This document shows positions 19,114-64,000 of a stretch of 64,000 nucleotides of DNA, piece by piece. The number at the start of each line of letters is the position of its first letter. Position 1 is the first letter of the stretch. The stretch is from Ignavibacteriota bacterium (GTDB lineage Bacteria > Bacteroidota > Ignavibacteria > UBA10030): assembly GCA_022616555.1 (NCBI GenBank), contig JAKEEG010000068.1, positions 912 to 64,911 of the forward strand, given 5' to 3'. The translations under genes were made by a program, and so were the position numbers. The notes under the pieces are model-generated. The model ran no database searches. It had not been told where the DNA came from and saw only the letters and a list, made by a program, of their open reading frames with translations.

Positions 19114-19168
19114 GTAATTTCCTCAAATAGTGCTAAACAATATACTTTAAAAAGAAAGTCATAACAAC

Positions 19169-19246
19169 AGACCCCATCCTCACCTTCCCCTAAGAGGGGA
19201 AGGAACACATTCCCTCTCCTCTTAGGAGAGGGATAGGGTGAGGTCT
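19169..19246. repeat. Nested-hairpin intergenic repeat, family D, copy 1
   Basis: Outer arms cctcacc...ggtgagg enclose two hairpins (ttcccct-aaga-ggggaa and ccctctcc-tctta-ggagaggg); near-identical copy at 62090. Confidence 0.6.
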
Positions 19247-26306: not shown

Positions 26307-26340
26307 GGATGCGCTCCCCTTCTAGCAATAAAGGTAAATG

Positions 26341-27573: not shown

Positions 27574-27757
27574 TGAATCCTTTTGTAATTTGCCACTATG
27601 TCACTAAGAAATTAAAATCTTACTTGTCTACCCCCTGCATTCCGTTCACGTGGCGAACGGAACGCGTCCCGCTTGATGAAGGAGGACAAAAAGCTTTTCT
27701 TTAACTGCGCAACCTAAACTACCGAAGCAATCCCCTCGGGAGTGGTTTGCTTTTCTG

Positions 27758-34020: not shown

Positions 34021-34075
34021 ACCTCCCCCCTTTTATTCCCCTCGGTGAGGGGGACAGTACGATTAACCTTCATAC
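34021..34075. repeat. Short repeat family C, copy 1 (CCTCCCCC-TTTATT-CCCCTC-GGT-GAGGGGGACAG)
   Basis: Hairpin cccctc-ggt-gagggg; related copies at 34122 and 40155. Confidence 0.55.
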
Positions 34076-34121
34076 TCTGCTTCCATGAGTTGTCTCAGTC
34101 AGAGACCTTCGACAAAAACAG

Positions 34122-34185
34122 CACCTCCCCCTTTATTCCCCCTCGGTGAGGGGAACAGTACGATTAACCTTCGTACTCAGCTTCG
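34122..34185. repeat. Short repeat family C, copy 2
   Basis: cacctccccctttattccccctcggtgaggggaacagtacg. Confidence 0.55.
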
Positions 34186-40997: not shown

Positions 40998-41127
40998 AAT
41001 GTTGTGCCAAGATAGAAAAAAATCCGCCCCTAAACAAGAAAGCTAGTCGTGGAGTACTGATTCAGTTTGAACAATACGTCATCCCGAACTAACCGGTATC
41101 TATAAGCGCTCTCAAAAATACTCCTCT

Positions 41128-41213
41128 ATGTCATTCCCGCATGCTTTTAGCGGGAATCCAGCGCGTGGATGCCCGCTTAAAATCCGCGGGCATGACAAAG
41201 TACTAATTTTGAG
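41128..41213. repeat. Structured intergenic element, family A, copy 1 (about 86 bp with nested hairpins)
   Basis: tgtcattcccgcatgcttttagcgggaatccagcgcgtggatgcccgcttaaaatccgcgggcatgacaaagtact; about 85% identical copy at 58396. Confidence 0.6.
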
Positions 41214-41223
41214 ATAGGATCTA

Positions 41224-41266
41224 AAAAAAGACCCCGAAACTAGTTCGGGGTGACGTTCTTTTTTCG
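41224..41266. terminator. Bidirectional rho-independent terminator (hairpin B: accccgaa-actag-ttcggggt flanked by A/T runs)
   Basis: 8 bp stem; T-run on both strands; terminates the beta-lactamase-family gene; an inverted near-identical copy lies at 58051. Confidence 0.6.
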
Positions 41267-47524: not shown

Positions 47525-48064
47525 TCAGTTTTTTGGAGCAGCGGGAACGCTTATTTGTAGTTTCGCCAACACTTTTGCGGTCAGGTCGTTTTTCTCGTTC
47601 GCAAACATCAAAAGGATTTCACCGCTTTTATCAAACACGTAATCGTATTCTTCTTCCTTGGCAACATCCTGGATTGCTTGAAACACGCGGTCTTGTACCG
47701 GCTTCATGAGCTCGTTCTGTTTGTTGAACAGGTCGCCGTTCTGACCGAACTTTAAATTACGATATTCAGCGATCCTGCGCTCCAAATCCTGGAGCTCCTT
47801 TTCTGCCTCCGCGCGGCGTTGGTCCGTCATAACGAGCTTGCGCTTGTCGTATTCTTCAAATCGATTCTGCCAATCTTGTTGCATTTTTTGGAGCTCGTTC
47901 TGCCACTCCACGACAAGTGCATCCAGTTGGCGCTGGGCATCCTGGGCATCCGGCAATTCTTTCATAATTGCTTCAGAGCTGATGTGCCCAATTTTTGATT
48001 GGGCATTGGCAGCCGTCAGGCCACATGAGACAAGTGCAATGAGAAAAAGGAGGAAGCGTTTCAT
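47525..48064 (-). CDS. OmpH/Skp-family periplasmic chaperone
   Basis: 179 aa; signal peptide and coiled-coil Skp-like architecture. Confidence 0.75.
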   Translation of the reverse strand: MKRFLLFLIALVSCGLTAANAQSKIGHISSEAIMKELPDAQDAQRQLDALVVEWQNELQKMQQDWQNRFEEYDKRKLVMTDQRRAEAEKELQDLERRIAEYRNLKFGQNGDLFNKQNELMKPVQDRVFQAIQDVAKEEEYDYVFDKSGEILLMFANEKNDLTAKVLAKLQISVPAAPKN

Positions 48065-48232
48065 AAATTCACCTTATGACGGGGTGTACAGAAATGCATC
48101 GGCGACAAAAAAGACAATTCTCTGTCTTTCCGAGGACAACGAGGAATCTAAAAAATACTTGAACGCAAAAGAAAGGTTCCTCGTCGCTTCGCTACTCGGA
48201 ATGACAATCTCTTTCTCTGTTACACAGAAATC

Positions 48233-48778
48233 CTACTTGCCTTTCGTTACACCGCGTTTCAGACGGTCAAGCACTTGATAGGTAAGGTCGTACTTCACGT
48301 CTGCGAACAACACCATTGCGTCGTTTGCTTTATCGAACACGAAACTATAGCCATCGTCTTTCGCTACGCCTTCGATGGCTTTGAGGATCCGGTCGCGAAT
48401 CGGGGCGAGCCTTTTTTCGCGTTCGGTAACAGCCTCGCCCTGCCGCGGGTCGAATTTTTGCGCCTGGTATTGCAAGTACCGTTGCCGCAGCTCGTTCAGC
48501 TCTTGTTCTTTCGCCTGGCTTGACGCCTGGTTCATCATCGCTTTCTTCTTTTGGTAATCGTCAAACTCTCGCTGGAACGTCGTGTCCATCTTCGTGAGTT
48601 CCGAGTTCCATCCTCTGATAAGGTCTTCCAGCTCCTTAACCGCCTGCTGTGCCTCCGGGAGGTCGGCGAGGATTTTTTCCGAATCCACATAGCCGATTTT
48701 GAGCGCCTGTGCCTGTGCGAACGAAGCCGCCACCGTCAGACTTGCAACAATACCTATAAGCAACAAAGTTTTTTTCAC
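48233..48778 (-). CDS. OmpH/Skp-family periplasmic chaperone (second paralog)
   Basis: 181 aa; same architecture as its neighbour. Confidence 0.75.
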   Translation of the reverse strand: MKKTLLLIGIVASLTVAASFAQAQALKIGYVDSEKILADLPEAQQAVKELEDLIRGWNSELTKMDTTFQREFDDYQKKKAMMNQASSQAKEQELNELRQRYLQYQAQKFDPRQGEAVTEREKRLAPIRDRILKAIEGVAKDDGYSFVFDKANDAMVLFADVKYDLTYQVLDRLKRGVTKGK

Positions 48779-48825
48779 GATACCCTCTTAGGATTAAGTT
48801 GTTAAAAGATAAATTAATTTCTTTC

Positions 48826-51219
48826 TCAGAACCCGCGGCCAAACTGGAAATGGAATTTCCAGCCGGGCGTACCGCCGCCGGGCAGCGGGGGGTCGAAGCC
48901 GTAACCGTAATCGAAACCCACCAAACCGATCGGGTTAATCATCAAGCGAACGCCCATACCCGCCGAGCGGCGTAAATTGAACGGGTCTTGAATCGAATGA
49001 TTGAGCCAAACATTGCCTGCCTCGGCAAAGAACAATGTATAAATCGGAATCGGGTTGAGCGCAAGAGCAAAGCGGAGTTCCACCTGATGTTTGAGCATTG
49101 CAAAACCGCCCTGGTCTCCATCGCTCGGACCCACACTACGGTCTTCGTATCCGCGGAGCGGGGTCGTCTGAAATTGCCCCAGCCCTGTGCCGCCCATATA
49201 AAATAATTCGTAAGGGGAAATGCGTGTATTGTTCTCAAACTCAAAAATAAATCCGATTGTGCTGGAGGTTGCCAGGGCAATCCGGGGACTTCCAAACACC
49301 GGCACGTACCACTCCGCTGAAAAAATATGTTTATGGTAACGCGCGTTACCCGGTAGGAACGGGCCACCGTTGATTTCCGTCAACAACGAGAAGTTTGAGC
49401 CGGACGACGGAAAAATGGGGCTATCGGTGCTGTTACGGGAAATCACCTGAGCAATGCCGAATTGCGAGGTTACGCCCTCCCGGTAGTAGCCAAGGCCTTC
49501 AATCACATTGCTGCGCTGAGCCCGGACCGTCCAATCGACGCGGAAGAAATCATCAGGCCAGCGAAGGCGGCGCCCGATACGGATCGACGCGCCGGTTGTG
49601 TGAACGTCGACACCGTAGCGTTGCCGCGTATCAAACAAGTTCACGCCGAAGAGCGTGGGCGTATCGTAGAGCCACGGTTCCTGAAAGCCGATCGAAAACG
49701 TGCGGAAGCTGCTGCCCTCGCCAAATTGCCAATCGAACGTCAACACTTGCCCGGCACCGCCGCGCAACGGCTCTTTGAGCGAAAAATTATTGAACGACAA
49801 CCCCAGCGCGCCGTTGAAGCCGAAGAAGCCGCTGTAACCCACCGACATATTGAACGTATCGCTGGGTTTCTCTTCGACCGCATACTCGAGGTCTACCGTC
49901 TTATCATCAACAGGTTTTACATCCGGCCTGATTTTCTCCGGGTTGAAGTAATTCAACTGCGATAACTGCCGGGCGCTGCGGATGACAAGCTCACGGCTAA
50001 AATCGTCTCCCGGACGGGTATAGAGCTCCCGGCGGATCACCTTTTCGTACGTCTTCGTATTGCCGGTAATACGCACCTGACCGATTTTGAATTTATTCCG
50101 TTCACGCACATGGAACGTCAAATCGATGCTATCTGCCGCTATGCGCTGCTCTTCCGGCTCAACTTGAAAGAAGAGGTACCCGTTATTCATATAGAGAGAG
50201 GAAACATCGTTCTCCGCTTCGTTGCGGTAGAGGTTTTCCTCCAATTTGCCTGTATCATAAATGTCGCCGGATTGGAACCCAAGCCTTGCAGAGAGCACAT
50301 CGTCCGGATAGACCGTATTGCCATCCCAAGCGATATTCCGGACCTTATACTGCGGGCCTTCGTGCACGAAAATATCGATTGCGAGGTATTTCTTATCGTC
50401 GCTATAGGAGATAGAATCCTTCAATATTTCCGCATCGCGATAGCCGTTTTTGCGATAAAACTTCAAAATAAGCTGCTTGTCCTCTTCATATTTCTTTTTT
50501 TCGAATTTATTGCTCGCCCAGAACTTCCACCATGCCCGTTCGCTCGTTTCGCTCATTTCGCCTTTCAGGTCGTCGTCGTCAAACTGCGTATTGCCGTAGA
50601 AGAGAATCCGGTCAACAACGATTTTTTGCCCTTCGTCGATGATGAATTTCAGCACCACACGACTGCTTGTTGTGTCTTCCGACGCAAGCAGAGTATCTCG
50701 AATAACCGCGTTTAGATATCCCTCTTCATCGTATTTCGCTTTCAGCTGGCGGATAAAAGAAGATACTTCATGCTCAGAGACAATCTGCCCCTTGACCATG
50801 CTTACAGTTTTCAGGATATCGTCTTCGCTCAGCTCATCGTTTCCTTTGACTTCTACTCTCTCCAACCGGGGGTTTTCCCTCACGCGGATTTGGAGATACA
50901 CGCCTTCGGGAGTACGGTTTTCAATATAAATTTGGACATCGGCAAAGAGTCTCAATCCGTACAGTCGCTCGATGGCGGTACGAGTCTGTTGTCCCGGCAC
51001 GGCAATCTCGTCGCCGACTTTCAGTCCCGTGTTCGCGATAATCGCGTTGGCGTCCGCTGAACGCTGGCCTTGTACGGAAATGCCGAGTATGCGGTACACT
51101 TCGGGTTGCCGGACGTTTTGCGCGTAGACCGAAACGGCGGGGATCGCCATTGGGGCAATACTGAGCAGCGCCACTGAAAGAGAAAATAAGAGAGAGGTAC
51201 GCTTAGAGCTTCGCGACAC
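48826..51219 (-). CDS. bamA: Outer membrane protein assembly factor BamA
   Basis: 797 aa; POTRA repeats plus an Omp85 barrel ending ...FHFQFGRGF. Confidence 0.9.
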   Translation of the reverse strand: MSRSSKRTSLLFSLSVALLSIAPMAIPAVSVYAQNVRQPEVYRILGISVQGQRSADANAIIANTGLKVGDEIAVPGQQTRTAIERLYGLRLFADVQIYIENRTPEGVYLQIRVRENPRLERVEVKGNDELSEDDILKTVSMVKGQIVSEHEVSSFIRQLKAKYDEEGYLNAVIRDTLLASEDTTSSRVVLKFIIDEGQKIVVDRILFYGNTQFDDDDLKGEMSETSERAWWKFWASNKFEKKKYEEDKQLILKFYRKNGYRDAEILKDSISYSDDKKYLAIDIFVHEGPQYKVRNIAWDGNTVYPDDVLSARLGFQSGDIYDTGKLEENLYRNEAENDVSSLYMNNGYLFFQVEPEEQRIAADSIDLTFHVRERNKFKIGQVRITGNTKTYEKVIRRELYTRPGDDFSRELVIRSARQLSQLNYFNPEKIRPDVKPVDDKTVDLEYAVEEKPSDTFNMSVGYSGFFGFNGALGLSFNNFSLKEPLRGGAGQVLTFDWQFGEGSSFRTFSIGFQEPWLYDTPTLFGVNLFDTRQRYGVDVHTTGASIRIGRRLRWPDDFFRVDWTVRAQRSNVIEGLGYYREGVTSQFGIAQVISRNSTDSPIFPSSGSNFSLLTEINGGPFLPGNARYHKHIFSAEWYVPVFGSPRIALATSSTIGFIFEFENNTRISPYELFYMGGTGLGQFQTTPLRGYEDRSVGPSDGDQGGFAMLKHQVELRFALALNPIPIYTLFFAEAGNVWLNHSIQDPFNLRRSAGMGVRLMINPIGLVGFDYGYGFDPPLPGGGTPGWKFHFQFGRGF

Positions 51220-52051
51220 TTTTGAAAAACCTTTCCACTCCGCTCAAGGGTCCGGAGGAGACCGGAACGCCCTGCGTGTCTTGGATCTGTTCGCTGGTCA
51301 TGCCGAACCGGCGTTCACGCTGCTGGAACTCGGCGATGGATTCATACAACTGCTTGCGGCGAAAATCGGGCCAGTGTACATGCGAGATGGCAATCTCACT
51401 ATAGGCAAGCTGCCATAGGAGGAAATTGCTGATACGGTTCTCTCCGCTGGTGCGAATCATGAGATCCGGGTCGGAGAAATCTTTTGTCGATAGATATTGT
51501 GAAATCACTTCTTCGTTGATCTGGTCTTTTGTTAGTGTACCGTTGCGGACGTCTTCGGCAATGCGCTTCATCGCGCGCGTCAAGTCCCACCGCCCGCTGT
51601 AACTGAGCGCCAGGATGAGCGTCAACCCTGTGTTATGTTTCATCAGCTCGCTCGCGTCAAGCAGTTCATCCTGTATATCGTTCGGCAGCGAAGAAATATC
51701 GCCGATGGCTTTCAGCTGCACTTCGTTCTCGTGCAGGCGGTCGCGCTCATCGCGCAGCGCTTTCAACAGCAAGCGCATGAGCATGGAGACTTCATCGACG
51801 GGCCGGCGCCAGTTTTCTGTCGAAAACGCGTACAGGGTAAGATACTTCACTCCGAGCTGTCCGCACGCCTCTACAATATCGCGAACAGAATTCACGCCCT
51901 CATGGTGCCCGGCGATGCGGGGCAAGCCTCTGCGCTTCGCCCAGCGGCCGTTCCCATCCATAATAATGGCGATGTGCTTGGGAATTTCGCCGCTTGCACG
52001 CAGCATGTCTTGCTGTTTCTTATCTGCGCCGGTTGCTTGTTCTAATGCCAC
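51203..52051 (-). CDS. uppS: Isoprenyl transferase (undecaprenyl diphosphate synthase)
   Basis: 282 aa; HIAIIMDGNGRWAK and LTLYAFSTENWRRP motifs. Confidence 0.9.
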   Translation of the reverse strand: MALEQATGADKKQQDMLRASGEIPKHIAIIMDGNGRWAKRRGLPRIAGHHEGVNSVRDIVEACGQLGVKYLTLYAFSTENWRRPVDEVSMLMRLLLKALRDERDRLHENEVQLKAIGDISSLPNDIQDELLDASELMKHNTGLTLILALSYSGRWDLTRAMKRIAEDVRNGTLTKDQINEEVISQYLSTKDFSDPDLMIRTSGENRISNFLLWQLAYSEIAISHVHWPDFRRKQLYESIAEFQQRERRFGMTSEQIQDTQGVPVSSGPLSGVERFFKSVAKL

Positions 52052-52337
52052 TCGTGTACACCTAACAAAATGTCAGAAATTATTTCGCGGGTAGATGTTA
52101 ATTTAACCTTTTTTGAAAAGAAAGTCAAAGAAATGGCGTAACGTTCAACATGTCATTTATACTGTAATTTCGCCACTCTGCTCTTGTCGGGGATTACCTA
52201 CGGGTGAGGTATGTCTCGGCCGAACCGCACTTGCCGAGCGCGCCAAGCAAAGTCCACCCGAACTTCCTTAAACCGGTTTGTTGTGACACGCGTCTCATGG
52301 GGTGTTAGACGTTTGAGCGCCCCAAAAGGCACTTTGC

Positions 52338-52366
52338 TTGACTACGCTTTCGAATTGTGGTATATT
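52338..52366 (+). promoter_or_regulatory. Sigma-70-like promoter (TTGACT-N17-TATATT) upstream of clpC
   Basis: Near-consensus -35 and -10 hexamers with a 17 nt spacer, about 155 nt upstream of the clpC ATG. Confidence 0.5.
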
Positions 52367-52521
52367 GTCTATGGAAGCGTTAGGAAGTATTGGGAAGCAT
52401 GGGAAACTTTAGGGAGGGTGAACGAGTTTTAATAGGTAAGCAGCGCCTTCACCCAACGCGGCGCCTCTTTGAGAATACCCAACGAGCGCCGTATATGTCC
52501 CACAATTAGAGAGCTTATTTA

Positions 52522-55035
52522 ATGGAAGGTAACTTTTCAAACCGCGTGCAGGATGTCATTCGCCTCAGCCGCGAAGAAGCCCTGCGTCTTGGCCACGACT
52601 ATATCGGCACCGAGCACCTGTTGTTGGGGATCATTCGTGAAGGAGAAGGCATTGCGGTGAAGATTCTCCGCAACCTCGGCGTCGATTTGTATCGTTTGAA
52701 GAAAGCTATCGAAGACACAGTGCGCACATCCGGCGGCACACTGACTATCGGCAACATCCCTCTCACCAAGCAGGCTGAGAAGGTCCTTAAAATTACGTAC
52801 CTCGAAGCGAAACTCTATAAATCCGACGTGATCGGAACCGAGCATTTGCTCCTCTCACTGCTTCGAGACGACGACAATATCGCCGCACAGATTTTACACC
52901 AGTTCAACGTGCATTACGACGTCGTTCGCAACGAGCTGGATAACATCATTTCTGGTAAGCCATCGACGCCTCCGGCGGCTGGCGGACATCCCGCTGAGAA
53001 GAAGCAGGAACGCTCCAAGACACCGGTGCTGGATAACTTCGGCAGGGATTTAACAAAGCTTGCTATAGAAGATAAGTTGGATCCCATCGTTGGGCGCGAG
53101 AAAGAAATCGAACGCGTAGCTCAAGTGTTAAGCCGCCGCAAGAAGAACAATCCGGTACTCATCGGCGAGCCGGGCGTTGGCAAGTCTGCAATCGCCGAAG
53201 GCCTGGCGCTCCGCATCGTGATGAAGAAAGTCTCCCGTGTCCTACATGACAAGCGCGTGGTCACACTCGACCTTGCCGCGCTCGTCGCCGGCACGAAATA
53301 CCGCGGGCAGTTCGAAGAGCGCATGAAGGCTGTGATGAACGAGCTGGAGAAAGCCAAAGACGTCATCCTCTTTATAGATGAACTGCATACGATTGTCGGC
53401 GCGGGCGGCGCAAGCGGTTCGTTGGATGCTTCCAACATGTTCAAGCCTGCGTTGGCTCGGGGCGACCTACAGTGCATCGGCGCAACGACGCTTGACGAGT
53501 ACCGACAATATATAGAGAAGGACGGCGCGCTCGACCGACGGTTCCAGAAAATTATGGTCGACCCGACAACTGTCGATCAAACCATACAGATTCTGCAGAA
53601 CATCAAGCATAAGTACGAAGAGCATCACGGCGTCCGCTATACAGAAAAAGCCATCGATTCCGCAGTGCGGCTAAGCGACCGGTACATCACCGACCGCTAC
53701 CTGCCGGATAAGGCAATCGACGTGCTGGACGAATCCGGCTCGCGCGTGCATCTCGCCAATATAAAAGTGCCGAAGGAAATCCTTACGCTCGAAGAGGAAA
53801 TCGAAAAGATTAAGCTGGCGAAGAATCAGGTCGTCAAAAATCAAAACTTCGAAGAAGCCGCGCGGTTGCGCGACCTCGAGAAGAAACTGTTGAGCGACCT
53901 CGAAATCGCCAAGCGGGAGTGGGAATTAAAAGCTCAGGATATCGTGTATGAAGTGGATGAAGAAGAGTGCGCCGCCGTTGTGGCAATGATGACGGGCATT
54001 CCGGTGCAGAAAGTGGCAGAGAGCGAATCCGCCAAATTGCTCAAGATGGAAGAGGCGCTGAAAGAAGTCATCATCGGGCAGGATGAGCCTATCGAGAAAC
54101 TGACGAAGGCAATCCGCCGTGCCCGCGCCGGGTTGAAAGACCCGAAACGCCCCATCGGCTCGTTTATTTTCTTGGGCCCCACGGGCGTCGGAAAGACGGA
54201 AATGGCAAAGTCGCTCGCCCGGTATTTATTCGACTCCGAGGAAGCATTGATTAGGATAGATATGAGCGAGTATATGGAGAAATTCTCCGTCTCGCGGCTG
54301 GTCGGAGCGCCTCCGGGATACGTCGGCTACGAAGAAGGCGGGCAACTGACGGAGAAAGTCCGCCGCAAGCCATATTCTGTCGTGCTGCTGGATGAAATCG
54401 AAAAGGCGCACCCGGATGTGTTCAACATCCTGTTGCAAGTGCTGGATGACGGCATCCTCACGGATAGCCTCGGCCGCAGGGTGGATTTCAAGAACACGAT
54501 TCTCATCATGACGTCCAACATCGGCTCGCGGGATATTAAAGTGGGCGGCGGGTTGGGCTTCGGACTGCAGACCGATAAAGACAAATACCAGTCGATGAAA
54601 TCCAATATTGAAGACGCCCTGAAGCGCATCTTCAACCCGGAATTCCTCAACCGCGTCGATGACACGCTCGTGTTCCATAGCCTGGAGCGTGAGCATATCC
54701 TGCGGATTATCGATATCTCGCTGAAAGAACTCCTCGGCCGCATGACGTCGATGGGTATCGGCGTTGAGCTCACCAAGCCAGCGAAAGAATTCCTTGCCGA
54801 CAAAGGCTTCGACCCGGCATTCGGGGCGCGTCCCCTACGCCGTGCGGTGCAGAAATACGTCGAAGACCCGCTCGCGGAGCAGATTCTCAAAGGCACGTTC
54901 CAAACCGGAGCTAAGGTGAAGGTCAAGTATAGCAAGAAGGCGGAAGACCTGAAGTTCGTCGATTCGACCAAAGACACCGGCGGCGATGAGTTCAAGGAGA
55001 TCGACGAGGAGATTGCGGATCTGCCGAAGAACTGA
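52522..55035 (+). CDS. clpC: ATP-dependent Clp protease ATP-binding subunit ClpC (class III AAA+ chaperone)
   Basis: 837 aa; duplicated Clp_N repeats, two AAA+ modules ([13 protein letters not shown] and [13 protein letters not shown]), UVR-like linker. Confidence 0.9.
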
Positions 55036-55133
55036 TGAAGCAGGAGACATCCGCCCAACAAGATGGCGGACTTCGCGTATAACGCTCAGGAAGTCAGTAG
55101 TCAGTTATCAGAGGTCAGTAAAAGCATAAAAAC

Positions 55134-55170
55134 ACAAACCCTTGGCGATAAGCCGAGGGTTTTGTGTTTG
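55134..55170 (+). terminator. Rho-independent terminator downstream of clpC
   Basis: Stem aaaccct(t)ggc/gccgagggttt followed by tgtgtttg. Confidence 0.5.
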
Positions 55171-55229
55171 AGAGATGAATCAACAACCTAAGTGGCGCGT
55201 TTATGACAGGACCATGTTGCAATGCAAAT

Positions 55230-56234
55230 CTATTGGGTCAAAAGAATAATCCCATCACGTCCAACGGATATAGTTTCCTTTACTTTTGATGCATTCAATT
55301 CAAGAAAGTTATCTGAAAAGAAGCGAATCGCTTTTTCGGGATTTCGACGTTCGGAGATGTTCTCTAGCACTTCAGAATCTATCCCGAAATATAAGTTTGG
55401 GGTTCCTATTGCTCTGATTTTGAAATTACGTCCGAATCGTTCGATTGTTCGAGCCTGAAACCACTCGGATTGGTTCACAAAGACTGAGTAGTAATCCCTT
55501 AAGTAGTCCATAAATTCGACCGTGATTTTAACACCAGAGTCTTGTTCCTCATCGGGATCAATTATTTGACCTTGGATTGGGTCAGTAGACATGTCATAGA
55601 ATGCGGCTATGCGAGTCGCCGGAGGTAGGTTATTCACGCTTACGACTTGTGATACTTGGTAAATTGCGTGTTGTAACTCAGCATCGTTTCTTCCAGATGA
55701 ATATCCTTTCGCCTCAACAATATGAGGTCGTCTTGCAACATCGAACCCTACTAAATCAGGGATACGAGCTGGTTTATTGTTTGCATAAAGTTTGACTTTG
55801 GGCGGAAGTTGTACACCTGTAGGAGAGAGAATTACGCCTGTCATGCGTTTGGTATGCACCAACCACGGTACACCAAGCAAAATTTCAACTGAAGCACGTA
55901 CAAAGCCCATTCCCAAATGATAAGAAACTGAGATCTTCTCGCTCATTTCCAATCGATTGATGAATGTATCAGATAATTTAAGGTAGCCACTATTGTCTTC
56001 AGTGACGTGTGCATAGGTCATAGATAATAGGCAGGCTAGACGCCAAAAGCCGAGATGAAAAACATCCATAATGCCAGCTTGCCCAACCATCATAACTGAT
56101 CTTGCCAGATCTTGTAAGGAAATGTCAAGGTTTCTGCCTACAGCATTTAGCGTGGTGTATGCGCCAGAGAATCTGGAAATGTCAGCTTTAATCATGGTAT
56201 TCGTAACTGAATTTTGACCGTTTACAGTTGCCAC
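55230..56234 (-). CDS. Hypothetical protein with a PD-(D/E)xK nuclease-like motif (AT-rich island gene 3)
   Basis: 334 aa; IPDLVGFD...HIVEAKGY fits the PD-x(n)-ExK restriction-endonuclease-fold signature; no other domain recognised. Confidence 0.5.
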   Translation of the reverse strand: MATVNGQNSVTNTMIKADISRFSGAYTTLNAVGRNLDISLQDLARSVMMVGQAGIMDVFHLGFWRLACLLSMTYAHVTEDNSGYLKLSDTFINRLEMSEKISVSYHLGMGFVRASVEILLGVPWLVHTKRMTGVILSPTGVQLPPKVKLYANNKPARIPDLVGFDVARRPHIVEAKGYSSGRNDAELQHAIYQVSQVVSVNNLPPATRIAAFYDMSTDPIQGQIIDPDEEQDSGVKITVEFMDYLRDYYSVFVNQSEWFQARTIERFGRNFKIRAIGTPNLYFGIDSEVLENISERRNPEKAIRFFSDNFLELNASKVKETISVGRDGIILLTQ

Positions 56235-56302
56235 GCGGAAAGTGGGAACAAAAAAACTGACGGACAGGGCCTAACGTTCAGTGTATTCCTTTGTTTCCAT
56301 TT

Positions 56303-56917
56303 CTATGTTGTGGGTTTTGTTCGTCCTCGTTCAACCTTTGCTGGTAGAACAAAAAGAAAATCAGCCAGAGCTAGTGCGAAGTTAATGCATTTTCTTGCCT
56401 CATCTTCACCAGGGAGAGGCTCCGCATCGTCGGCATGTCTTTGGTCGTTGGCATCAAGGCGCACTTCGTGAGCCCATTGTGCCATTTCGGTCGTGATGAG
56501 ATGATCAGATGCAGCCCTATCTATTCTACTATAGAGCGACCCCTCCTTAAGTCCTTTCACTTTTAGCATTGAATCAACCGCACTGGCAGCCAGCATAACA
56601 GCGCCTGCCGGAGCGTGCAGACTATCAATAGATTGTTGTAAGTACGAACGGGCAGGATTAGGAATAACTTGATCAGCTATTTGGGCGCTCGGATACATTT
56701 CTGTCACTATGCCATCCTGTCCTTGGGAACTCGCACACAAGATTTGCCCCCCACACGTAATACACCGATAGGCACTCCACCAGCGTTTATTCGCTCCAGA
56801 AACGGAAACTGATTCTTGCGAACCAAAGACTCTATCAAGTCGAGGCTTAGCTACGCTACAGTGTGGGCAACGAGGAAGGTCAAGCTGGTTGAGCATCTGC
56901 GTTAAGATTTCATTCAT
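56303..56917 (-). CDS. Zn-ribbon plus DUF4145-like (possibly HEPN-related) protein (AT-rich island gene 2)
   Basis: 204 aa; N-terminal CPHC...CITCGG zinc ribbon; C-terminal helical domain resembling DUF4145 (AAGAVMLAASAVDSMLKVKG ... AHEVRLDANDQRHAD). Confidence 0.45.
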   Translation of the reverse strand: MNEILTQMLNQLDLPRCPHCSVAKPRLDRVFGSQESVSVSGANKRWWSAYRCITCGGQILCASSQGQDGIVTEMYPSAQIADQVIPNPARSYLQQSIDSLHAPAGAVMLAASAVDSMLKVKGLKEGSLYSRIDRAASDHLITTEMAQWAHEVRLDANDQRHADDAEPLPGEDEARKCINFALALADFLFVLPAKVERGRTKPTT

Positions 56918-57053
56918 CGATAGAGTCCTCTATTATTTTGCTACATTGACAGGCAGCCGGACATGACACCTAACGTTTAACGGCGCGACGCAGTGCTTTT
57001 TAAACTCGTGAACTATTCGAGTATCTTTGCACCGCTTGTTAGCTTCAGTGCAG

Positions 57054-57614
57054 TTACGATACATTCATCTTCAATAACGAAAGAACAATTACTCCGAGAA
57101 AAATCCAAACAACAGAGATTTTCATAGCTAACGTAGCCCATCTATAAGGACGATATTTGTTTCTGACAAGCTGGAGTGTTGTGAAATGAAGCTTGAAATA
57201 ATTCTGGCGAATTGACGAATCATTAAATCCTTCGAGAGTGCTTATATAGTTCTCGGGTGCCGATGGAAAATTATGTTTAGGCCACATCACGTAATTGTTA
57301 ATCTGCATTTCTGTGAAGGGAACATTGAGACCGAAAAATTTTCTCGAGGGGCGAATAGTCTGAAGTAAAAGTAGCGCTACAACAGTAAACAGAAAAAAGG
57401 ATACCGCTAAAAAGATGTAACTCACCGTATTGATTGTTGATGATTGATGAGTTATGAATATTTCATTGACAGCGTATGTCAATGAACCAATTAAAACGCC
57501 TTGAACCGCTAGCAAAATATCCGCCTTGTTGTCAACCAAGTTTATTCGGTTCTCCAAATGAGTGACCGAATCTCTTAGAAATTCAATTACTTTGCTTTGC
57601 GTAGTGTCTTCCAT
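57054..57614 (-). CDS. Small 3-TM membrane protein (AT-rich island gene 1)
   Basis: About 187 aa from the ATG at 57614 (AAGGA ribosome-binding site 9 nt upstream); N-terminal amphipathic helix then three hydrophobic helices; the 293 aa ORF extension into GC-rich DNA is probably spurious. Confidence 0.5.
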   Translation of the reverse strand: MEDTTQSKVIEFLRDSVTHLENRINLVDNKADILLAVQGVLIGSLTYAVNEIFITHQSSTINTVSYIFLAVSFFLFTVVALLLLQTIRPSRKFFGLNVPFTEMQINNYVMWPKHNFPSAPENYISTLEGFNDSSIRQNYFKLHFTTLQLVRNKYRPYRWATLAMKISVVWIFLGVIVLSLLKMNVS

Positions 57615-58050
57615 TTGTGTATCCTTTCCGTTTACAGATTGCTTACTGCATAACGCCCAACTCGTGAATCTCCTGATTTCGTATGCCCCTTCCACAAAAC
57701 ACAAAAGCCCCTGTCGTTGAAGAATCAACTCCAGAGGCTTCTCTAAACTCTCGCTACACATTAAGGCTCCCCTTCCTCCTAAGCCCGCCATTAAGATTGG
57801 CGGGCAGGCGCCTTCCCGCAGTGCGGGATCCCAAACAACCCCAAAGGGGCAGGCGGGACTGGTGGCATAATCTTTTTCTCGCAAAGGCGTCCCGCTATAA
57901 TGCAGCGGGATGCAAAAAACGCACAGAGAGCGCAAAGGTATATTTATGTCAAAAGCTCTTCTTAGCGTGCTTTGCGTCTTGGCGAGAGACTCAGCTTTAG
58001 TACTTGTTTAATATACAAACTCGCGGGGAAAAAGCAAACCCCATTAACAA

Positions 58051-58086
58051 GTCACCCCGAACTCGTTTCGGGGTCTATCTTTTAGA
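58051..58086 (+). terminator. Hairpin B, inverted copy (caccccgaa-ctcgt-ttcggggt followed by a T-rich run)
   Basis: Reverse complement of the 41224 terminator hairpin; not preceded by any plus-strand gene, so likely a relic or part of a repeat. Confidence 0.4.
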
Positions 58087-58395
58087 TGCTGAAACAAGTT
58101 CAGCATGACGTTTATCTTATATTTTTTCCCAAATCCGCCTTGATCTCTATTGTTATCCGCTGTTTCAGTATTCTATTGCCTTTGCAAATCTCTCATAAAC
58201 GCTATTAGAGCGATTCTGTACGCCGACCCACCCCAAGATACCACCTTGAGTGGACGGGAAAAATCCGTCCATGGACGGGGAATTTCCGTCCGTATCCCAG
58301 AAACGGGTTGAGGTCACCAAAATCAGATGTCAGTGGTCAGATGTCCTCCGTAGGAGTCCCTACGGGAAGAAATCAGTAAGAAAAAACACCTCAGT

Positions 58396-58492
58396 TTGTC
58401 ATTCCCGAATGTTTTTTGTCGGGAATCCACAGATGGATGCCCGCTTAAAACCTGCCTGCCGGCAGGCAGGTCTGCGGGCATGACAAGGTACT
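58396..58492. repeat. Structured intergenic element, family A, copy 2 (with a 20 nt palindromic insertion ctgcctgccggcaggcaggt)
   Basis: tgtcattcccgaatgttttttgtcgggaatccacagatggatgcccgcttaaaacctgcctgccggcaggcaggtctgcgggcatgacaaggtact. Confidence 0.6.
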
Positions 58493-58633
58493 TCTACCCC
58501 CAACTTACATTGGGGGTTTGTGCATTTAATAGGCTATTGCTGACACCCCGACGGCCTCCTTATGCCTTTGAAAGAAATGCGATACGAAATAAGAAAACAT
58601 TTCATTATCCTACGACCACGAGGAGAAAAACTC

Positions 58634-59314
58634 ATGAGCTTTTCTTACCAGGAAAAACAATCTTCATCGCCACTGGTTGATGTCGTTTGGCGCACAGAGG
58701 ATCAAACTGATGGAATATACATCGCTTCGGCTGATGCATGCTGGGATATGATTTTCATTACGAGCCGCGAGGGAAAAACCACGGTGTTACTGAGCGGACC
58801 CTGTTTCAAAACAACTCGTGTTCCTTATACGGCTGGCAATAAAAACTTCGGCATAAAATTCAGCTCGTGCACGGTCTTTACAAATATCCCAGTTGCCTCG
58901 ATGGTCAATGTGACAAAGAGCTTGCCTATGCCAACTGAAAATAGCTTTGAACTGCAAGGCATAACCTGGAAGCTCCCTACGTACGAAAGCGTCGATCAAT
59001 TTGTAGCAGAGCTGGAAAACCGTGGTTTGATAAAATCTGACCCGATTATCAAGAGCGTGCTTGAAGACAAAAACGCTGGTATTTCCCAGCGTTCCGTCCA
59101 GCGACATTTTATCAAGACCATCGGTATGTCTCCTCGCAGAGTAAAGCAAATCATCGCGGCCCGGACGGCAGTCGGGTTGCTCTTGCAGGGCGCACAAATA
59201 GCCGAAGTAGCCTATAAGCTCGGCTACGCGGACCAAGCCCACATGACCCGCATGCTCAAGCGTTTCACAGATTATACCCCCCTAGGCAACAAAATCAGAA
59301 ACCAGAAGGTTTAG
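58634..59314 (+). CDS. AraC-family transcriptional regulator
   Basis: About 226 aa from the ATG at 58634 (AGGAGA ribosome-binding site); C-terminal AraC helix-turn-helix (AEVAYKLGYADQAHMTRMLKRFTDYTP). Confidence 0.75.
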   Translation: MSFSYQEKQSSSPLVDVVWRTEDQTDGIYIASADACWDMIFITSREGKTTVLLSGPCFKTTRVPYTAGNKNFGIKFSSCTVFTNIPVASMVNVTKSLPMPTENSFELQGITWKLPTYESVDQFVAELENRGLIKSDPIIKSVLEDKNAGISQRSVQRHFIKTIGMSPRRVKQIIAARTAVGLLLQGAQIAEVAYKLGYADQAHMTRMLKRFTDYTPLGNKIRNQKV

Positions 59315-59363
59315 GTTTTCGTGTCGTTTTTGTTCAAGACTTCTTACAAGTGCCGCCATAAAT

Positions 59364-60674
59364 TTGCAGCCTAACAGAATTCCTATGAAAACTTCAACAG
59401 GTAAGTCCATGTCTCGTGGCAATTTCCTCAGGCTTTCAGTCCTGCTAGGCATTTCTTTGGCGAAGGTCGAGGTCTTGTCCGCTTTCGGTTTGAAAAAAGA
59501 ATATCTCAGCGGAAGAAGCAATATAACCAACAAGGAACAACATATGAACATGAAGCCATTCAAAATCGCAATTCCAGAAAAAAAGCTTAAGGATTTGCAC
59601 GAACGCCTCAAAAACACCCGCTGGCCCTATGAGATCCCGGGGGAAGGCTGGAAGCGCGGCATGCCTCTTGAGTATACTCAAAAACTAACAGAGTACTGGC
59701 GGACAAAGTTTGATTGGCGCGAGCAAGAAGCGAGGTTGAATAAATACCCACAATTTATTACTGAAATCGACAATCAACCCATCCACTTTCTGCACGTGCG
59801 ATCCACTGATGCCAAAGCTGTACCGCTCGTTCTGTGTCACAGCTACCCCGGTTCCTTCGTTGAGTTTTCTCGAATGATCGAACCATTAGTCAACCCTGGC
59901 AAGAACGAACAGGCTTTTCACCTTGTGATACCCTCACACCCGGGATATGGGTTCTCAACACCTGTTACAACAAAGGGCTGGGAAATCAGTAAAATGGCTG
60001 GCGCGTATGTTCGCATCATGCGTGAGCTTGGCTATGAGCGTTACGGCGTCCATGGCGGCGACATTGGAGCAGGCGTTTGCGAACAACTATGCATTCAGGC
60101 GGGAGACCAAGTCATTGGCTCGCTGATTACTACCGATCCTGGTGCCATTGCAACCGACTTTACACCACCCACAGATCATTTGAGTGAAGATGAAAAAAAA
60201 CGCCATCAAGAGTTGAAATCCGCACGAAGTGAAGATTTCGGTTATCTTCAAATTCAATCTACCCGCCCGCAGACGCTTGCTTACGGTCTCACCGACTCGC
60301 CGGTCGCACAGATGACTTGGATTGTAGAAAAGTTCAAAGCGTGGACTGACCCTACAAAAGCACTCCCCGAAGACGCTGTAGATATCGATCAGCTACTGAC
60401 GAATGTCAGCATCTACTGGTTTGGACGAGGTGGAGCGGGCGCAGCGAATTTTATTTACGAAGCTTTTCATGCTCATCCTGCGTGGGGCCAAACACATAAC
60501 GTACCGCAGGGATGTGTCGTGTTCGGCAAAGAGCAATTGGTGCGCAGGATTATGGATCCGGAGCAAAAATTGGCTTACTGGAACGAGCATGAACGTGGAG
60601 GGCACTTCCCTACCATGGAATCACCAGAAGCACTTGTTGGCGACATTCGCGCATTCTTTCAAAAGTTAAAATAA
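59364..60674 (+). CDS. Epoxide hydrolase (alpha/beta hydrolase with an epoxide hydrolase N-terminal domain), paralog 1
   Basis: Epoxide-hydrolase N-terminal-domain motif (RWPYEIPGEGWKRGMPLEYTQKLTEYWRTKFDWREQE); alternative starts at 59409 (signal-peptide-like) or 59544 (best ribosome-binding site). Confidence 0.8.
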   Translation: MQPNRIPMKTSTGKSMSRGNFLRLSVLLGISLAKVEVLSAFGLKKEYLSGRSNITNKEQHMNMKPFKIAIPEKKLKDLHERLKNTRWPYEIPGEGWKRGMPLEYTQKLTEYWRTKFDWREQEARLNKYPQFITEIDNQPIHFLHVRSTDAKAVPLVLCHSYPGSFVEFSRMIEPLVNPGKNEQAFHLVIPSHPGYGFSTPVTTKGWEISKMAGAYVRIMRELGYERYGVHGGDIGAGVCEQLCIQAGDQVIGSLITTDPGAIATDFTPPTDHLSEDEKKRHQELKSARSEDFGYLQIQSTRPQTLAYGLTDSPVAQMTWIVEKFKAWTDPTKALPEDAVDIDQLLTNVSIYWFGRGGAGAANFIYEAFHAHPAWGQTHNVPQGCVVFGKEQLVRRIMDPEQKLAYWNEHERGGHFPTMESPEALVGDIRAFFQKLK

Positions 60675-60761
60675 CCGCGCTGCTTGATTGAGTAACGATT
60701 CCCCCTTTTAACACTCTGAGCGTCATCAAAGACAAATCACACAATAAACAGGAGGATAGCT

Positions 60762-62009
60762 ATGTTGAGAAAAATGGTCATCGTCACATGTTGTGTGATT
60801 ATGACAGTTAGTCTTTGTCTTCTAGATACAAACGCTCAAAACAAATCACAGAACGGCAGCCATTCCTCTGCGAAGGATCCACATATGGTCAATGACATCA
60901 AACCGTATAAAATTAACGTTGATCAAAAAATACTCGATGATTTAAAACAGCGAGTCGAGAAAACGACCTGGCCGAATGTTATTGAAGGCCAAAACTACGG
61001 TGGACCTCCGCTGAAAGACATGCAGGAGCTAACACGTAAACTTCTGAAGTTTGATTGGCGGAAGAAGGAAGCAGAGCTAAATAAACTGCCGCATTTCATC
61101 ACTGAGATTGAGGGCCAAAGCTTCCATTTCATACACGTGAAATCAAAGCACAAAAATGCAATACCGCTAATGCTTATTCACGGCTGGCCGGGGTCGATTG
61201 TTGAATTCCTGGATGTTATTGAGCCGCTGACGAATCCGGCCACAGGTAAGCCGGCATTTGACTTGGTCATTCCATCCTTGCCGGGCTTCGGATTTTCCGG
61301 CCCAACGAAAGATGCCGGCTGGACCACCAACCGAATTGCCAAAGCATTGAACGAACTCATGGGTCGTCTTGGGTACAAGAAATATGGCGTTCAAGGCGGG
61401 GATGCGGGAGCAATTATCGGCCCGGAAATGGCTCGCCTCGCGCCTGAAAAATTCATCGGCGTGCATGTCAATGCCGCAACGCTGGGCTTCATCCCCATGG
61501 GTCCGGTATCGGAAGCGGATATCGCAGCGTTTACTCCGGCAGAAAAGGAACGCTTGCAACGTTTGCAGGATTTTGTGCAAACAAAGTTCGGCTTTAACAT
61601 TATTCAGTCGCACCAGCCTCAGTTGCTTGCCTATGCGCTTTCCGATTCACCCGTGGGACTAATGGCTTGGATAAGCCAACTGTTCTCAGGGACTGAACTT
61701 GAACAGCAATTCCTGACGAACTTCATGATCTATTGGGTTACCGGGACGGCTGCATCGAGCATTCGCTGGTACTACGAAAGCGCGCATGACCCGGCCGCGT
61801 GGGCGCCAAAAGCCAATTCCGGTGTGCCCACGGGCGTAGCTATTTATCAAGACGAAGATATTGGGCTACGGAAGTTCGGCGAGCAAAGCAACACTATTGT
61901 TCGCTGGAAGGAGTACGAAAAGGGAGGACACTATGCGGTGATGAAAGCGTCAGAAGTTTGGACGAACGACGTCCGCGAGTTCTTTGCCGATTTGAAAGCT
62001 GCTAAGTAG
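60762..62009 (+). CDS. Epoxide hydrolase, paralog 2, secreted
   Basis: 415 aa; signal peptide; same domain organisation as paralog 1 (HGWPGSIVEF, GGDAGA). Confidence 0.85.
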   Translation: MLRKMVIVTCCVIMTVSLCLLDTNAQNKSQNGSHSSAKDPHMVNDIKPYKINVDQKILDDLKQRVEKTTWPNVIEGQNYGGPPLKDMQELTRKLLKFDWRKKEAELNKLPHFITEIEGQSFHFIHVKSKHKNAIPLMLIHGWPGSIVEFLDVIEPLTNPATGKPAFDLVIPSLPGFGFSGPTKDAGWTTNRIAKALNELMGRLGYKKYGVQGGDAGAIIGPEMARLAPEKFIGVHVNAATLGFIPMGPVSEADIAAFTPAEKERLQRLQDFVQTKFGFNIIQSHQPQLLAYALSDSPVGLMAWISQLFSGTELEQQFLTNFMIYWVTGTAASSIRWYYESAHDPAAWAPKANSGVPTGVAIYQDEDIGLRKFGEQSNTIVRWKEYEKGGHYAVMKASEVWTNDVREFFADLKAAK

Positions 62010-62046
62010 CAAACACCTTTATAAACGCAAACCACAGTTTGAGGCA

Positions 62047-62074
62047 GGCGACGTTATATAACGTCGCCTGCGCG
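62047..62074. repeat. Palindrome family E, copy 3 (ggcgacgttatataacgtcgcc-tgcgcg)
   Basis: Near-identical to the copy at 88-109; lies downstream of the epoxide hydrolase 2 stop. Confidence 0.5.
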
Positions 62075-62089
62075 TTAATGCTAGAAAAG

Positions 62090-62190
62090 CAGACCCCATC
62101 CTCACCTTCCCCTAAGAGGGGAAGGGATAAAGGCGCAAAATAATTAGCGTACATCCCCTCTCCTATTAGGAGAGGGACAGGGTGAGGTCT
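62090..62190. repeat. Nested-hairpin intergenic repeat, family D, copy 2 (with a 27 nt internal insertion)
   Basis: agaccccatcctcaccttcccctaagaggggaagg...ccctctcctattaggagagggacagggtgaggtct. Confidence 0.6.
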
Positions 62191-62204
62191 CATAAACGCG
62201 AGAC

Positions 62205-63194
62205 CTACCTCTCCCACAACTTCCCCCTCCCAAATTCCAACTGTCGAGTTACCTCAAACATTTTAAAATCGGGATTGAGCATATGGAGATCCACAGCCAA
62301 CGAATCCGTTGTCACTGTTACAACAACGAAATGAAATGTTCTTATCTCCAGCGAATTACTGAACAGATCTTTGTACTCGGCATCCTCACCTACTCTGAGC
62401 GGCTGGCGGGAACCACCACCTCCACCGATCACGAGAAAGTCTTTTTCATTTATATGGAATCGCTCGTATGCATGTGCATGCCCGCCGAGGAACACTTTGG
62501 CTTTGTTGGAGCTGTAGAATCCTGGAAGAAAATCCTGCTGGACTTCTTCCGAACCGGAGACAATCTTGCTGTTCGTGTACGGTGAATGGTGGCAACCGAC
62601 AAGGACAAAATCGACTGTTGAGTCAGCATCGTATTGCTGCAATGTACTGTTATACGACACGAGTTGACTGTCTCTCTCTGCCTCAGATAGCTTGCCGAAA
62701 TTCGAGTTAAACAGCACCACGGCGAGGTTGCCCAACTGAGTGGCATACCCGGTCAATGACGCATCGGGATAGCGAGAGGTGAAATTCTTGATTGCCCCCG
62801 AGAAAAATATATACTCATGGTTCCCGGCAATGGGATAAAAATCGCCGCCCTGCTTGCTCAATGCTGACACAAACTCATCCAGCTCCTCCCACCCTTTCTT
62901 GTTGAAGCTACTCGAGACCATATCTCCCAAATGATACACCGCGTCGGGCTGTAGGTCGAGCACCTTCCGGAAAATCTTTTTCCGCGCCTCGGCGTTGTTA
63001 TGGTAACCGAGATATAATCGCTCGAACCACATGGGCTCCTGCGTGTCGCTGAGAAAGCAAACGATGAGCGTGTCGTTTTGCGGGATTTGTGTATCCTGCG
63101 CAAGGCTAGGCGATGTCCACACGAGCGCAAATACCACGCTCGCGAGAATCGCCGTCTGAAACCATGTTTGTGTTCTTTTAATTTCTATCGTCAT
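62205..63194 (-). CDS. Secreted metallophosphoesterase (calcineurin-like phosphoesterase)
   Basis: About 330 aa from the ATG at 63194 (signal peptide MTIEIKRTQTWFQTAILASVVFALV); metallophosphoesterase motifs (GDMVS, GNHEY, GGHAHAYER). Confidence 0.75.
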   Translation of the reverse strand: MTIEIKRTQTWFQTAILASVVFALVWTSPSLAQDTQIPQNDTLIVCFLSDTQEPMWFERLYLGYHNNAEARKKIFRKVLDLQPDAVYHLGDMVSSSFNKKGWEELDEFVSALSKQGGDFYPIAGNHEYIFFSGAIKNFTSRYPDASLTGYATQLGNLAVVLFNSNFGKLSEAERDSQLVSYNSTLQQYDADSTVDFVLVGCHHSPYTNSKIVSGSEEVQQDFLPGFYSSNKAKVFLGGHAHAYERFHINEKDFLVIGGGGGSRQPLRVGEDAEYKDLFSNSLEIRTFHFVVVTVTTDSLAVDLHMLNPDFKMFEVTRQLEFGRGKLWER

Positions 63195-63328
63195 ACAAAA
63201 ATCCAAATCCGCTTTTATCTGTGCTTTTATCCGCTGTTTCAGCGTCCCACTGCTTCTATCAAAAACAACAATCCCCCGCTCGCGCAAATGAACGGGGGAT
63301 TTAAACGTTAACCCTTCCAAATGATGCA

Positions 63329-64000
63329 CTACTTCTTTTCTATGCTCGGATTCACGACGGGATACTCGTCGCCCAGGAAATTCCAGTCTTCGAAACTGCC
63401 GTCGTATAAGACAACTTCGTAGCCGAGGGATTTCGCCGCCGCGTACACGAGCGACGCCGTCTGCCCAACGTGACAGTACGTAACGACCTTCGACCCAAGG
63501 GTTACCCCTGCCTCATCGAACATCTTCTTCAGCGACGCAACGTCCTTCAAGTGTGTCGTGCTGTCGACAACAGTATTGAACGGGATGTTCTTAGCTCCCT
63601 TTATATGCCCCTGCCGACGCACACCGCCGCCGTTGCCGTCGTAGAAATTCTTCGTCCGGGCATCGATGACAACAATGTTGGGAGAATTGAGGTTGTCCTT
63701 CACCCAATCCGCATCAGCAATCACAGACGGATTCAACTTGAGTGTCAACGAAGTGCGTTTCACGACAGGGGTTTCCGTAGAGACAGGCCTACGCTCGTTT
63801 TTCCACGCCTCGAACCCGCCATCCAGCAACGAGATGGATCCTCCAAGGCCGTAGTACGTAAGGGCAATCATCGTACGCGCGGCTGGCGTAATATTGGCTC
63901 CCGTGAAACAAAGTACAATGCGTGAATCGTTTGTGACTCCCAAACCTTCCAACAACGTATCCGCTTTCTCGGGTGACGCCATTTCAGCATTCAGGTCGGG
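63329..64000 (-). CDS. Rhodanese-domain sulfurtransferase (thiosulfate/3-mercaptopyruvate type), 5' end beyond the window
   Basis: C-terminal active rhodanese domain with the catalytic Cys in TYCHVGQTASL; the N-terminal domain is cut by the window edge. Confidence 0.7.
   Translation of the reverse strand, partial: PDLNAEMASPEKADTLLEGLGVTNDSRIVLCFTGANITPAARTMIALTYYGLGGSISLLDGGFEAWKNERRPVSTETPVVKRTSLTLKLNPSVIADADWVKDNLNSPNIVVIDARTKNFYDGNGGGVRRQGHIKGAKNIPFNTVVDSTTHLKDVASLKKMFDEAGVTLGSKVVTYCHVGQTASLVYAAAKSLGYEVVLYDGSFEDWNFLGDEYPVVNPSIEKK

Follow-up and report, generated by a model that had tools for sequence, protein, structure and literature searches.

A mini-island of foreign composition in an Ignavibacteriota contig that probably holds three independent single-gene conflict modules

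Three genes of deviant composition between clpC and araC

We analysed a 64,000-nucleotide stretch of an Ignavibacteriota genome (the 119.8-kb contig JAKEEG010000068.1 of the metagenome-assembled genome GCA_022616555.1, positions 912 to 64,911 of the forward strand), hereafter the window, and in it a locus that lies between clpC and an araC-type regulator. A preliminary description, made from the letters of the sequence, had listed three co-oriented minus-strand open reading frames (ORFs) at this locus, at 57614-57054, 56917-56303 and 56234-55230, and had proposed that they form an acquired defence island. We found that all three ORFs are real, and the public gene calls of the source contig agree, with 186, 204 and 321 amino acids. 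Gene A (57054-57614, minus strand) encodes a 186-residue membrane protein of the PycTM (PF18967/DUF5706) family. Gene B (56303-56917, minus strand) encodes a 204-residue protein that joins a Cys4 zinc ribbon to a DUF4145/HEPN domain, an architecture like that of RAZR (PD-T7-4). Gene C (55230-56195, minus strand) encodes a 321-residue member of a large family that has no Pfam model and carries a PD-(D/E)xK-type D...ExK...Q signature. We consider it probable that the locus is a horizontally acquired mini defence island of about 2.5 kb (55.2-57.6 kb) made up of three independent single-gene conflict modules.

For gene C the reading frame given in the preliminary description stands; the GTG start at 56234 does not, being probably 13 codons too early. 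The homologs of C all begin with MIxxDIS, which aligns to M14, the 14th codon, of the ORF as first listed. Because the homologs begin there and the public gene call is likewise 321 residues long, the start of gene C is likely the ATG at 56195.

The DNA of the island is of foreign composition. In most 400-nucleotide steps across 55000-57800 the G+C content (GC) is 0.38-0.47, with values of 0.49-0.51 across gene B, versus 0.51-0.57 in clpC at the same step size and a mean of 51.5% for the window. GC at third codon positions (GC3) is 0.390 for A, 0.390 for B and 0.373 for C versus 0.615 +/- 0.061 for the 42 other ORFs of the window (minimum 0.485), which places the three genes approximately 3.7-4 standard deviations under that mean. 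Both stepwise GC and GC3 set the island apart from its flanks, as had been claimed from counts made by eye, although the 55-60% GC stated for the DNA elsewhere was somewhat high. The araC-type regulator and two paralogous epoxide-hydrolase-like genes (58562-62009) also have a lowered GC3, 0.49-0.54 versus the mean of 0.615, and the accessory region may extend past the three genes towards this side.

Families of the three gene products

Gene B had been read as a zinc-ribbon protein with a DUF4145 domain of the HEPN type, and this reading is borne out. The protein matches Pfam DUF4145 at 7.8e-8 and the PHROGs family phrog_1305 at 3.3e-17. In 35 homologs we saw no variation at C17, C20, C52 and C55, nor at R153, N157 and H161, which make up the motif R153-x3-N157-x3-H161. 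An AlphaFold2 (AF2) model of B has a four-strand ribbon at residues 27-75, and a HEPN fold is supported for the DUF4145 domain. DUF4145 has been placed in the HEPN superfamily, and zinc-ribbon fusions have been noted (PMC3710099). The family of B comprises more than 2600 clusters that are 55-65% identical over very different phyla, and within it pairwise identity is 47% for the zinc ribbon versus 69% for the HEPN domain.

The closest known system of this layout is RAZR (ring-activated zinc-finger RNase, formerly PD-T7-4), a single-gene abortive infection system from Escherichia coli UMB1727 (RRL46918.1; PDB 9Y9C; Nature 2026, PMC13017515). PD-T7-4 was described by Vassallo 2022, and its homologs often overlap an integrase gene according to these authors (PMC9519451). 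RAZR has a Cys4 zinc-finger domain joined by a conserved linker to a DUF4145/HEPN domain, whose catalytic residues are R146 and H154; a 24-mer forms around rings of the phage portal or of Gp77 and single-stranded RNA is then cleaved; its zinc ribbon is reported to be more variable than its HEPN domain (PMC13017515). Proteins of the B type have the same order of parts within about 200-220 residues, namely an N-terminal Cys4 zinc ribbon, a conserved linker and a C-terminal DUF4145/HEPN domain. The catalytic R and H are 8 residues apart in an R-x3-N-x3-H motif that aligns in register between the two. Like RAZR, B is a single gene with no conserved partner, its family varies more in the zinc ribbon than in the HEPN domain, and family members are frequently found on mobile elements or prophages. 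B differs from RAZR in that the sequence similarity is marginal and in that its clade is very uniform (55-65% identity) over many phyla.

We compared the B family with RAZR by means of profiles. A narrow B-family profile did not find the RAZR chain 9Y9C in the PDB. We then used a broader zinc-ribbon-DUF4145 profile, which combined the B family with distant proteins encoded on a Vibrio plasmid or in viral contigs. These distant proteins align end to end with B, sharing CPHC...CxxC, a YP linker, WAHxVRxxxNxxxH and a C-terminal LP; the gene of one of them, from a viral contig, had no match in complete E. coli genomes. With the broader profile the top PDB match was RAZR (9y9c_OA), with both domains collinear and R-x3-N-x3-H in register, at an E value of 0.08. 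With hhalign the HEPN part of RAZR was matched at 3.1e-4 with the motif in register, and its zinc-finger domain fragment was matched by the B family at 4.2e-5 (probability 69.5%). We take B to be a distant RAZR-like protein belonging to a separate, new clade, with a mechanism that we propose by analogy.

By this analogy B would rest as an inactive oligomer. The variable zinc ribbon would bind a ring-shaped phage protein such as the portal, and binding would bring the HEPN domains into an active arrangement. R153 and H161 would then cut single-stranded RNA (transfer, ribosomal or messenger RNA), and translation would stop, giving abortive infection. Gene B would in this way tie an environmental clade of many phyla and thousands of members to the recently solved RAZR mechanism, and the clade would offer diverse zinc ribbons for the study of trigger specificity.

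The surroundings of B homologs were surveyed in genomes and in viral contigs. There are 26 close homologs of B in viral contigs (IMG/VR, L047-L072), and 11 of these copies lie within 250 nucleotides of a contig end (count read from the table), a typical cargo position. The B clade is large and often prophage-borne. We saw no integrase cluster among the neighbours of the 26 viral copies, and a tblastn search with B gave no match in phages and six matches in plasmids, all of them weak. We examined 5 kb around B homologs in 12 genomes and 3.5 kb around them in the 26 viral contigs, and no neighbour was conserved in either set, which speaks for genomic independence only and not for function. In the relative closest to B (86% identity), the next gene downstream is unrelated, encodes 144 residues without a Pfam match and overlaps the stop codon of the B homolog by 4 nucleotides (L043 782-1216); this gene could be a lineage-specific partner of that relative.

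All three genes of the island are of known kinds, with the family of gene C the most novel element. When 1.84 billion cluster representatives (clusters at 50% identity) were searched with a profile, the family proved to comprise 1240 clusters at E<=1e-3 and 713 at <=1e-10, nearly all of them full-length at about 320 residues; a word-indexed search returned four relatives only. Among 100 members with 21-49% identity to C, residues D160, G163, E174, K176, Q193, D226 and Y249 are invariant. Since D160, E174 and K176 are invariant in these diverged homologs, the PD...ExK signature that had been picked out in the single sequence is conserved. We found no significant match of the C family in Pfam, PADLOC, NCBIfam, PHROG or PDB by sequence and profile searches, and among the 100 members no system model of PADLOC-DB v2 matches the shared core significantly. 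Weak local matches, each confined to a single member, were to Aga_Cas4-like_Nuc (1.8e-3, in the motif region), Hjc (3.1e-3) and HSDR_N (3.5e-3).

One stronger match, to the PADLOC candidate PDC-S34 at 8e-14, was rejected as the identity of the family because it sits outside the shared core, in a C-terminal extension of the member P0146. Residues 321-409 of P0146 match the C-terminus of PDC-S34, a similarity that suggests domain shuffling between the C family and this catalogued single-gene candidate.

With its invariant D...ExK...Q, and with a family found in defence islands and at prophage cargo positions, C resembles the stand-alone PD-(D/E)xK nucleases (Argonaute-associated Cas4-like, Hjc and Mrr/HsdR N-terminal). 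It differs from them in that its N-terminal region of about 150 residues and its C-terminal region of about 140 residues match no known domain. We propose that C would be a stand-alone PD-(D/E)xK-type nuclease with its core at approximately residues 155-195 and family-specific N- and C-terminal domains on either side, which would most likely cleave invading or cellular DNA after some trigger.

Relatives of C were found in varied company. In one locus a DUF1998-like helicase (motif read by eye) lies upstream and the other genes are DUF2130, an AAA_15 ATPase, 8xMP and Abi_C, and in another the relative accompanies BrxC/D, a DEAD helicase and ScoMcrA-HNH beside phage terminase genes. Further relatives lie directly upstream of HsdM and HsdS, beside Mrr_cat and an SNF2-NOV_C helicase, or next to an integrase or resolvase. 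A relative in a P2-like prophage sits between the replication gene A (GPA) and the portal, terminase and P2-capsid genes, in a slot that we take to be the old/tin cargo region of P2. Across about 22 C loci no neighbour was conserved. The defence and mobile-element context proposed for the island is thus found in the relatives of B and C, which occur in prophages, defence islands and plasmids. Just upstream of the C homolog P0004 lies a 183-residue gene (L002 5148-5699; also L003-L005) with a D...ExK-like motif (CDLILH...IAIEVKK) and no Pfam match, which may encode a second small nuclease.

Homologs of C are carried by 109 plasmids, 94 from Agrobacterium and 11 from Rhizobium. On pAt12D1 of Agrobacterium tumefaciens (L045 4662-6966), the one plasmid whose gene context we examined, a distant homolog (28% identity, 93% coverage) stands third in a tight operon, after an Xre/MbcA/ParS antitoxin and a RES toxin. 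ParS-RES modules with a nuclease-like third component appear to be undescribed. Our locus differs from such modules in that neither RES nor ParS is encoded in the window, and only one distant branch of the C family shows this partnership.

Gene C marks a large unannotated family of putative nucleases with a strong defence and mobile-element context, and as such is a candidate for screening. We put forward only tentatively a two-part proposal, that C represents a widespread, uncatalogued and unnamed single-gene nuclease defence family, found at cargo positions such as the P2-like prophage slot, type I restriction-modification neighbourhoods, BREX/helicase islands and the RES toxin operon, in which the trigger would be sensed by the N- and C-terminal domains, and that the B clade extends RAZR-type ring-sensing immunity to a uniform, pan-phylum, prophage-borne lineage.

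Gene A has three hydrophobic segments by hydropathy, at residues 31-49, 66-84 and 162-180, in agreement with the three-transmembrane protein noted earlier. Three PADLOC PycTM models match it full length, the best at 4.2e-12, with residues 8-182 aligned to model positions 4-153 of 160, and another at 1.3e-11. Precomputed annotation places PF18967 on the public gene call of A and on 18 of 18 full-length relatives; a direct Pfam search of gene A gave no PF18967 match at E<=1. In an alignment of 15 homologs the family motif LENRIxxxDNKAxxLxAxQG is conserved in A and the start codon agrees. The SLATT-like family of effectors that the preliminary description had suggested is not supported for A, which matches PycTM instead; no search aimed at SLATT was made.

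PycTM (PF18967; PADLOC PDLC02363-5) is reportedly an effector of the Pycsar system of Tal and colleagues (2021). Canonical Pycsar consists of two adjacent genes in one operon (PMC13069673). Gene A is like PycTM in being small, in having several transmembrane segments, in matching the models over their full length and in its conserved N-terminal amphipathic motif. It differs in that the two-gene arrangement is missing. No PycC cyclase is adjacent to A, whose neighbours are gene B and, on the upstream side, a 947-nucleotide non-coding stretch without a long ORF, and the loci of 7 close homologs contain no cyclase-like ORF. Because A and its close relatives lack a partner cyclase, A is not a Pycsar system, and this membrane protein of the PycTM family belongs to no recognised system.

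It could still be argued that A is a working Pycsar-type effector which answers a cyclic nucleotide monophosphate made by a distant enzyme, such as the class III cyclase encoded at 27761-29824. Apart from the full-length PycTM matches of A, what speaks for this is that the product of 27761-29824, alone among the ORFs of the window, matches PycC models (4e-26) and carries the cyclase motif FSDIRGFT. However, this 688-residue protein joins an Mcp40H-sensor, a HAMP and a Guanylate_cyc domain, and its gene is 27 kb off in a different cluster, whereas the genes of canonical Pycsar are adjacent (PMC13069673) and the loci of the close A homologs are free of cyclases. We rejected 27761-29824 as the partner of A and regard the distant-cyclase explanation as highly improbable; its domains mark the protein as a signalling cyclase of the ordinary kind, encoded in another cluster. 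The preferred reading, in which A stands outside Pycsar, leaves a three-transmembrane protein from a family that serves as the membrane-disrupting Pycsar effector, here without a cyclase. A could be an effector that is orphaned or decayed, or else a membrane protein that is self-contained. Relatives of PycTM that lack a cyclase raise the question of how the membrane module is activated, or which other roles it has, outside Pycsar.

The cluster of the cyclase consists of three consecutive minus-strand genes (24699-29824). The cyclase is accompanied by a SpoIIE/PP2C phosphatase (26344-27573, 410 residues) and a HerA-type ATPase (24699-26306, 536 residues) that matches the PADLOC HerA models at 5.5e-159; the three might conceivably make up a HerA-based defence system with a signalling input. 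A PADLOC scan of 43 ORFs of the window also gave matches to PDC-M37B (4.9e-42), DolB (1.1e-28) and mad8 (two ORFs, 8.5e-19), which may stem from housekeeping homologs.

One system or three modules

The preliminary description had allowed for two arrangements, one undescribed system of three genes or a set of independent single-gene systems. We fetched about 61 loci of homologs, some of them duplicate contigs, leaving about 55 independent loci, and compared A, B and C with all of their ORFs by phmmer (7 loci for A; for B, 12 in genomes and 26 in viral contigs; about 22 for C). At none of the independent loci was a second member of the trio found. The three genes were contiguous on two assemblies, both from the same population. 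An exact-match search with ClpC found the source contig alone.

In a joint system the membrane protein, as effector, would act in concert with the HEPN RNase and the nuclease. In favour of it, the genes all point the same way and have a similarly low GC3, the gaps between them are short (136 nucleotides from A to B and 107 from B to C) with no terminator-like site predicted in either, and the contiguous trio recurs on the two assemblies. Set against this are the lack of co-occurrence elsewhere, the different gene downstream of the 86%-identical relative of B, the occurrence of C alone or with other partners, and the fact that the characterised protein of the B type, RAZR, works alone (PMC13017515). 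Because no locus has a second member and the trio is seen only in one population, we consider the three-gene system very unlikely. The lack of co-occurrence, together with the lack of any conserved neighbour of B and C, speaks against it and fits the other arrangement, independent single-gene systems. This suggests that what looks like a tidy operon of three genes in foreign DNA can consist of unrelated single-gene modules stacked together, a point that matters for the automated discovery of defence systems.

The genes might also have no part in immunity, and be leftover or addiction-type (toxin-like) cargo from a mobile element that has decayed, or have other, unrelated functions in the cell. 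We found no tRNA gene in 48000-64000, no integrase near the island among the genes called on the source contig and annotated with Pfam, and no direct repeats bordering the island; small repeat elements flank the locus, relatives of A occur in housekeeping contexts, and the C homolog of pAt12D1 belongs to a toxin-antitoxin operon. These points agree with a non-immune origin. Yet the three ORFs are intact and have kept their catalytic and family motifs, known defence genes and cargo slots of prophages prevail in the contexts of B and C, and both families are large and conserved, which argues for selection. On balance we judge a non-immune role unlikely, and favour three independent conflict modules.

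Several observations weigh against this interpretation. Gene B has no match to the PADLOC PD-T7-4 model (PDLC04109) at E<=1, and among the 35 members of its family the model is matched by 4, weakly though collinearly (best 0.0075); the sequence link between B and RAZR is marginal throughout (PDB E value 0.08, hhalign probabilities of 39-70%). The AF2 model of C, made from a 4-sequence alignment, has a mean confidence (pLDDT) of 43 and is unusable, so the putative nuclease fold of C is predicted from a short motif and the weak matches. At 45-61% identity, the close homologs of A are found with HSP70 on one side and a zinc-ribbon gene on the other, within an hdr/FlpD-type cluster or behind unknown genes; in such housekeeping-type neighbourhoods (HSP70/HSP20, the hdr/FlpD cluster) the context of A gives no hint of defence. 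The co-orientation, the short gaps and the missing terminators leave room for co-transcription and cooperation of the three genes. Finally, we observed which domains the proteins contain, that catalytic residues are conserved, that the composition is foreign, that the families are mobile and that the three genes do not co-occur at the loci of their relatives; the biochemical activities and the defence phenotype of A, B and C are what we infer.

Repeats, hairpins and non-coding DNA around the island

Downstream of the island a hairpin of 11 pairs at 55136-55162 lies between the convergent genes clpC and C and is T-rich on both sides. On the plus strand its tail is TGTGTTT, and on the minus strand the stem is followed by GTGTTTTTAT. 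It is probably a bidirectional terminator for clpC and gene C. A scan for sigma-70 promoters gave fewer sites than in shuffled sequence and is uninformative for this phylum.

A GC-rich structured segment (57615-57945, minus strand) lies directly 5' of gene A. It folds better than its shuffles, with a minimum free energy of -127.6 kcal/mol versus -108.0 +/- 6.0 (z = -3.27). The segment is non-coding; the upstream extension of the A reading frame that it contains is absent from homologs, which start at the M encoded at 57614. An Rfam search of 54900-58700 gave no match.

The repeat elements reported on the araC side, together with this structured segment, are real. At 58051-58082 there is an inverted copy, 32 nucleotides long and 91% complementary, of the hairpin at 41223-41254 (termed hairpin B in the preliminary description), and a terminator-like site is predicted within it at 58054-58074. 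A direct copy of the 74-nucleotide element at 41114-41187 (its element A) lies at 58382-58455 on the plus strand, with 72% identity over 74 nucleotides. The core pattern of this element, GTCATTCCCG...GGGAATCC, had 0 matches in 100 shuffles and is not what chance would be expected to give. A 51-nucleotide repeat at 58129-58179 (plus strand) has its second copy at 63203-63253, with 78% identity.

A 40-nucleotide palindrome (GGACGGGAAAAATCCGTCCATGGACGGGGAATTTCCGTCC) lies at 58252-58291, also in the non-coding DNA that separates gene A from araC. Farther away, the repeat pair 19163-19246 and 62085-62190 consists of two adjoining elements of about 40 nucleotides that are 93-95% identical and have hairpin potential, and at 34026-34184 there are 58-nucleotide units in a tandem pair, again with hairpin potential. 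From their sequences the repeat families at 19.2, 62.1 and 34.0 kb look like REP/MITE-like elements (repetitive extragenic palindromes or miniature inverted-repeat transposable elements) scattered over the window.

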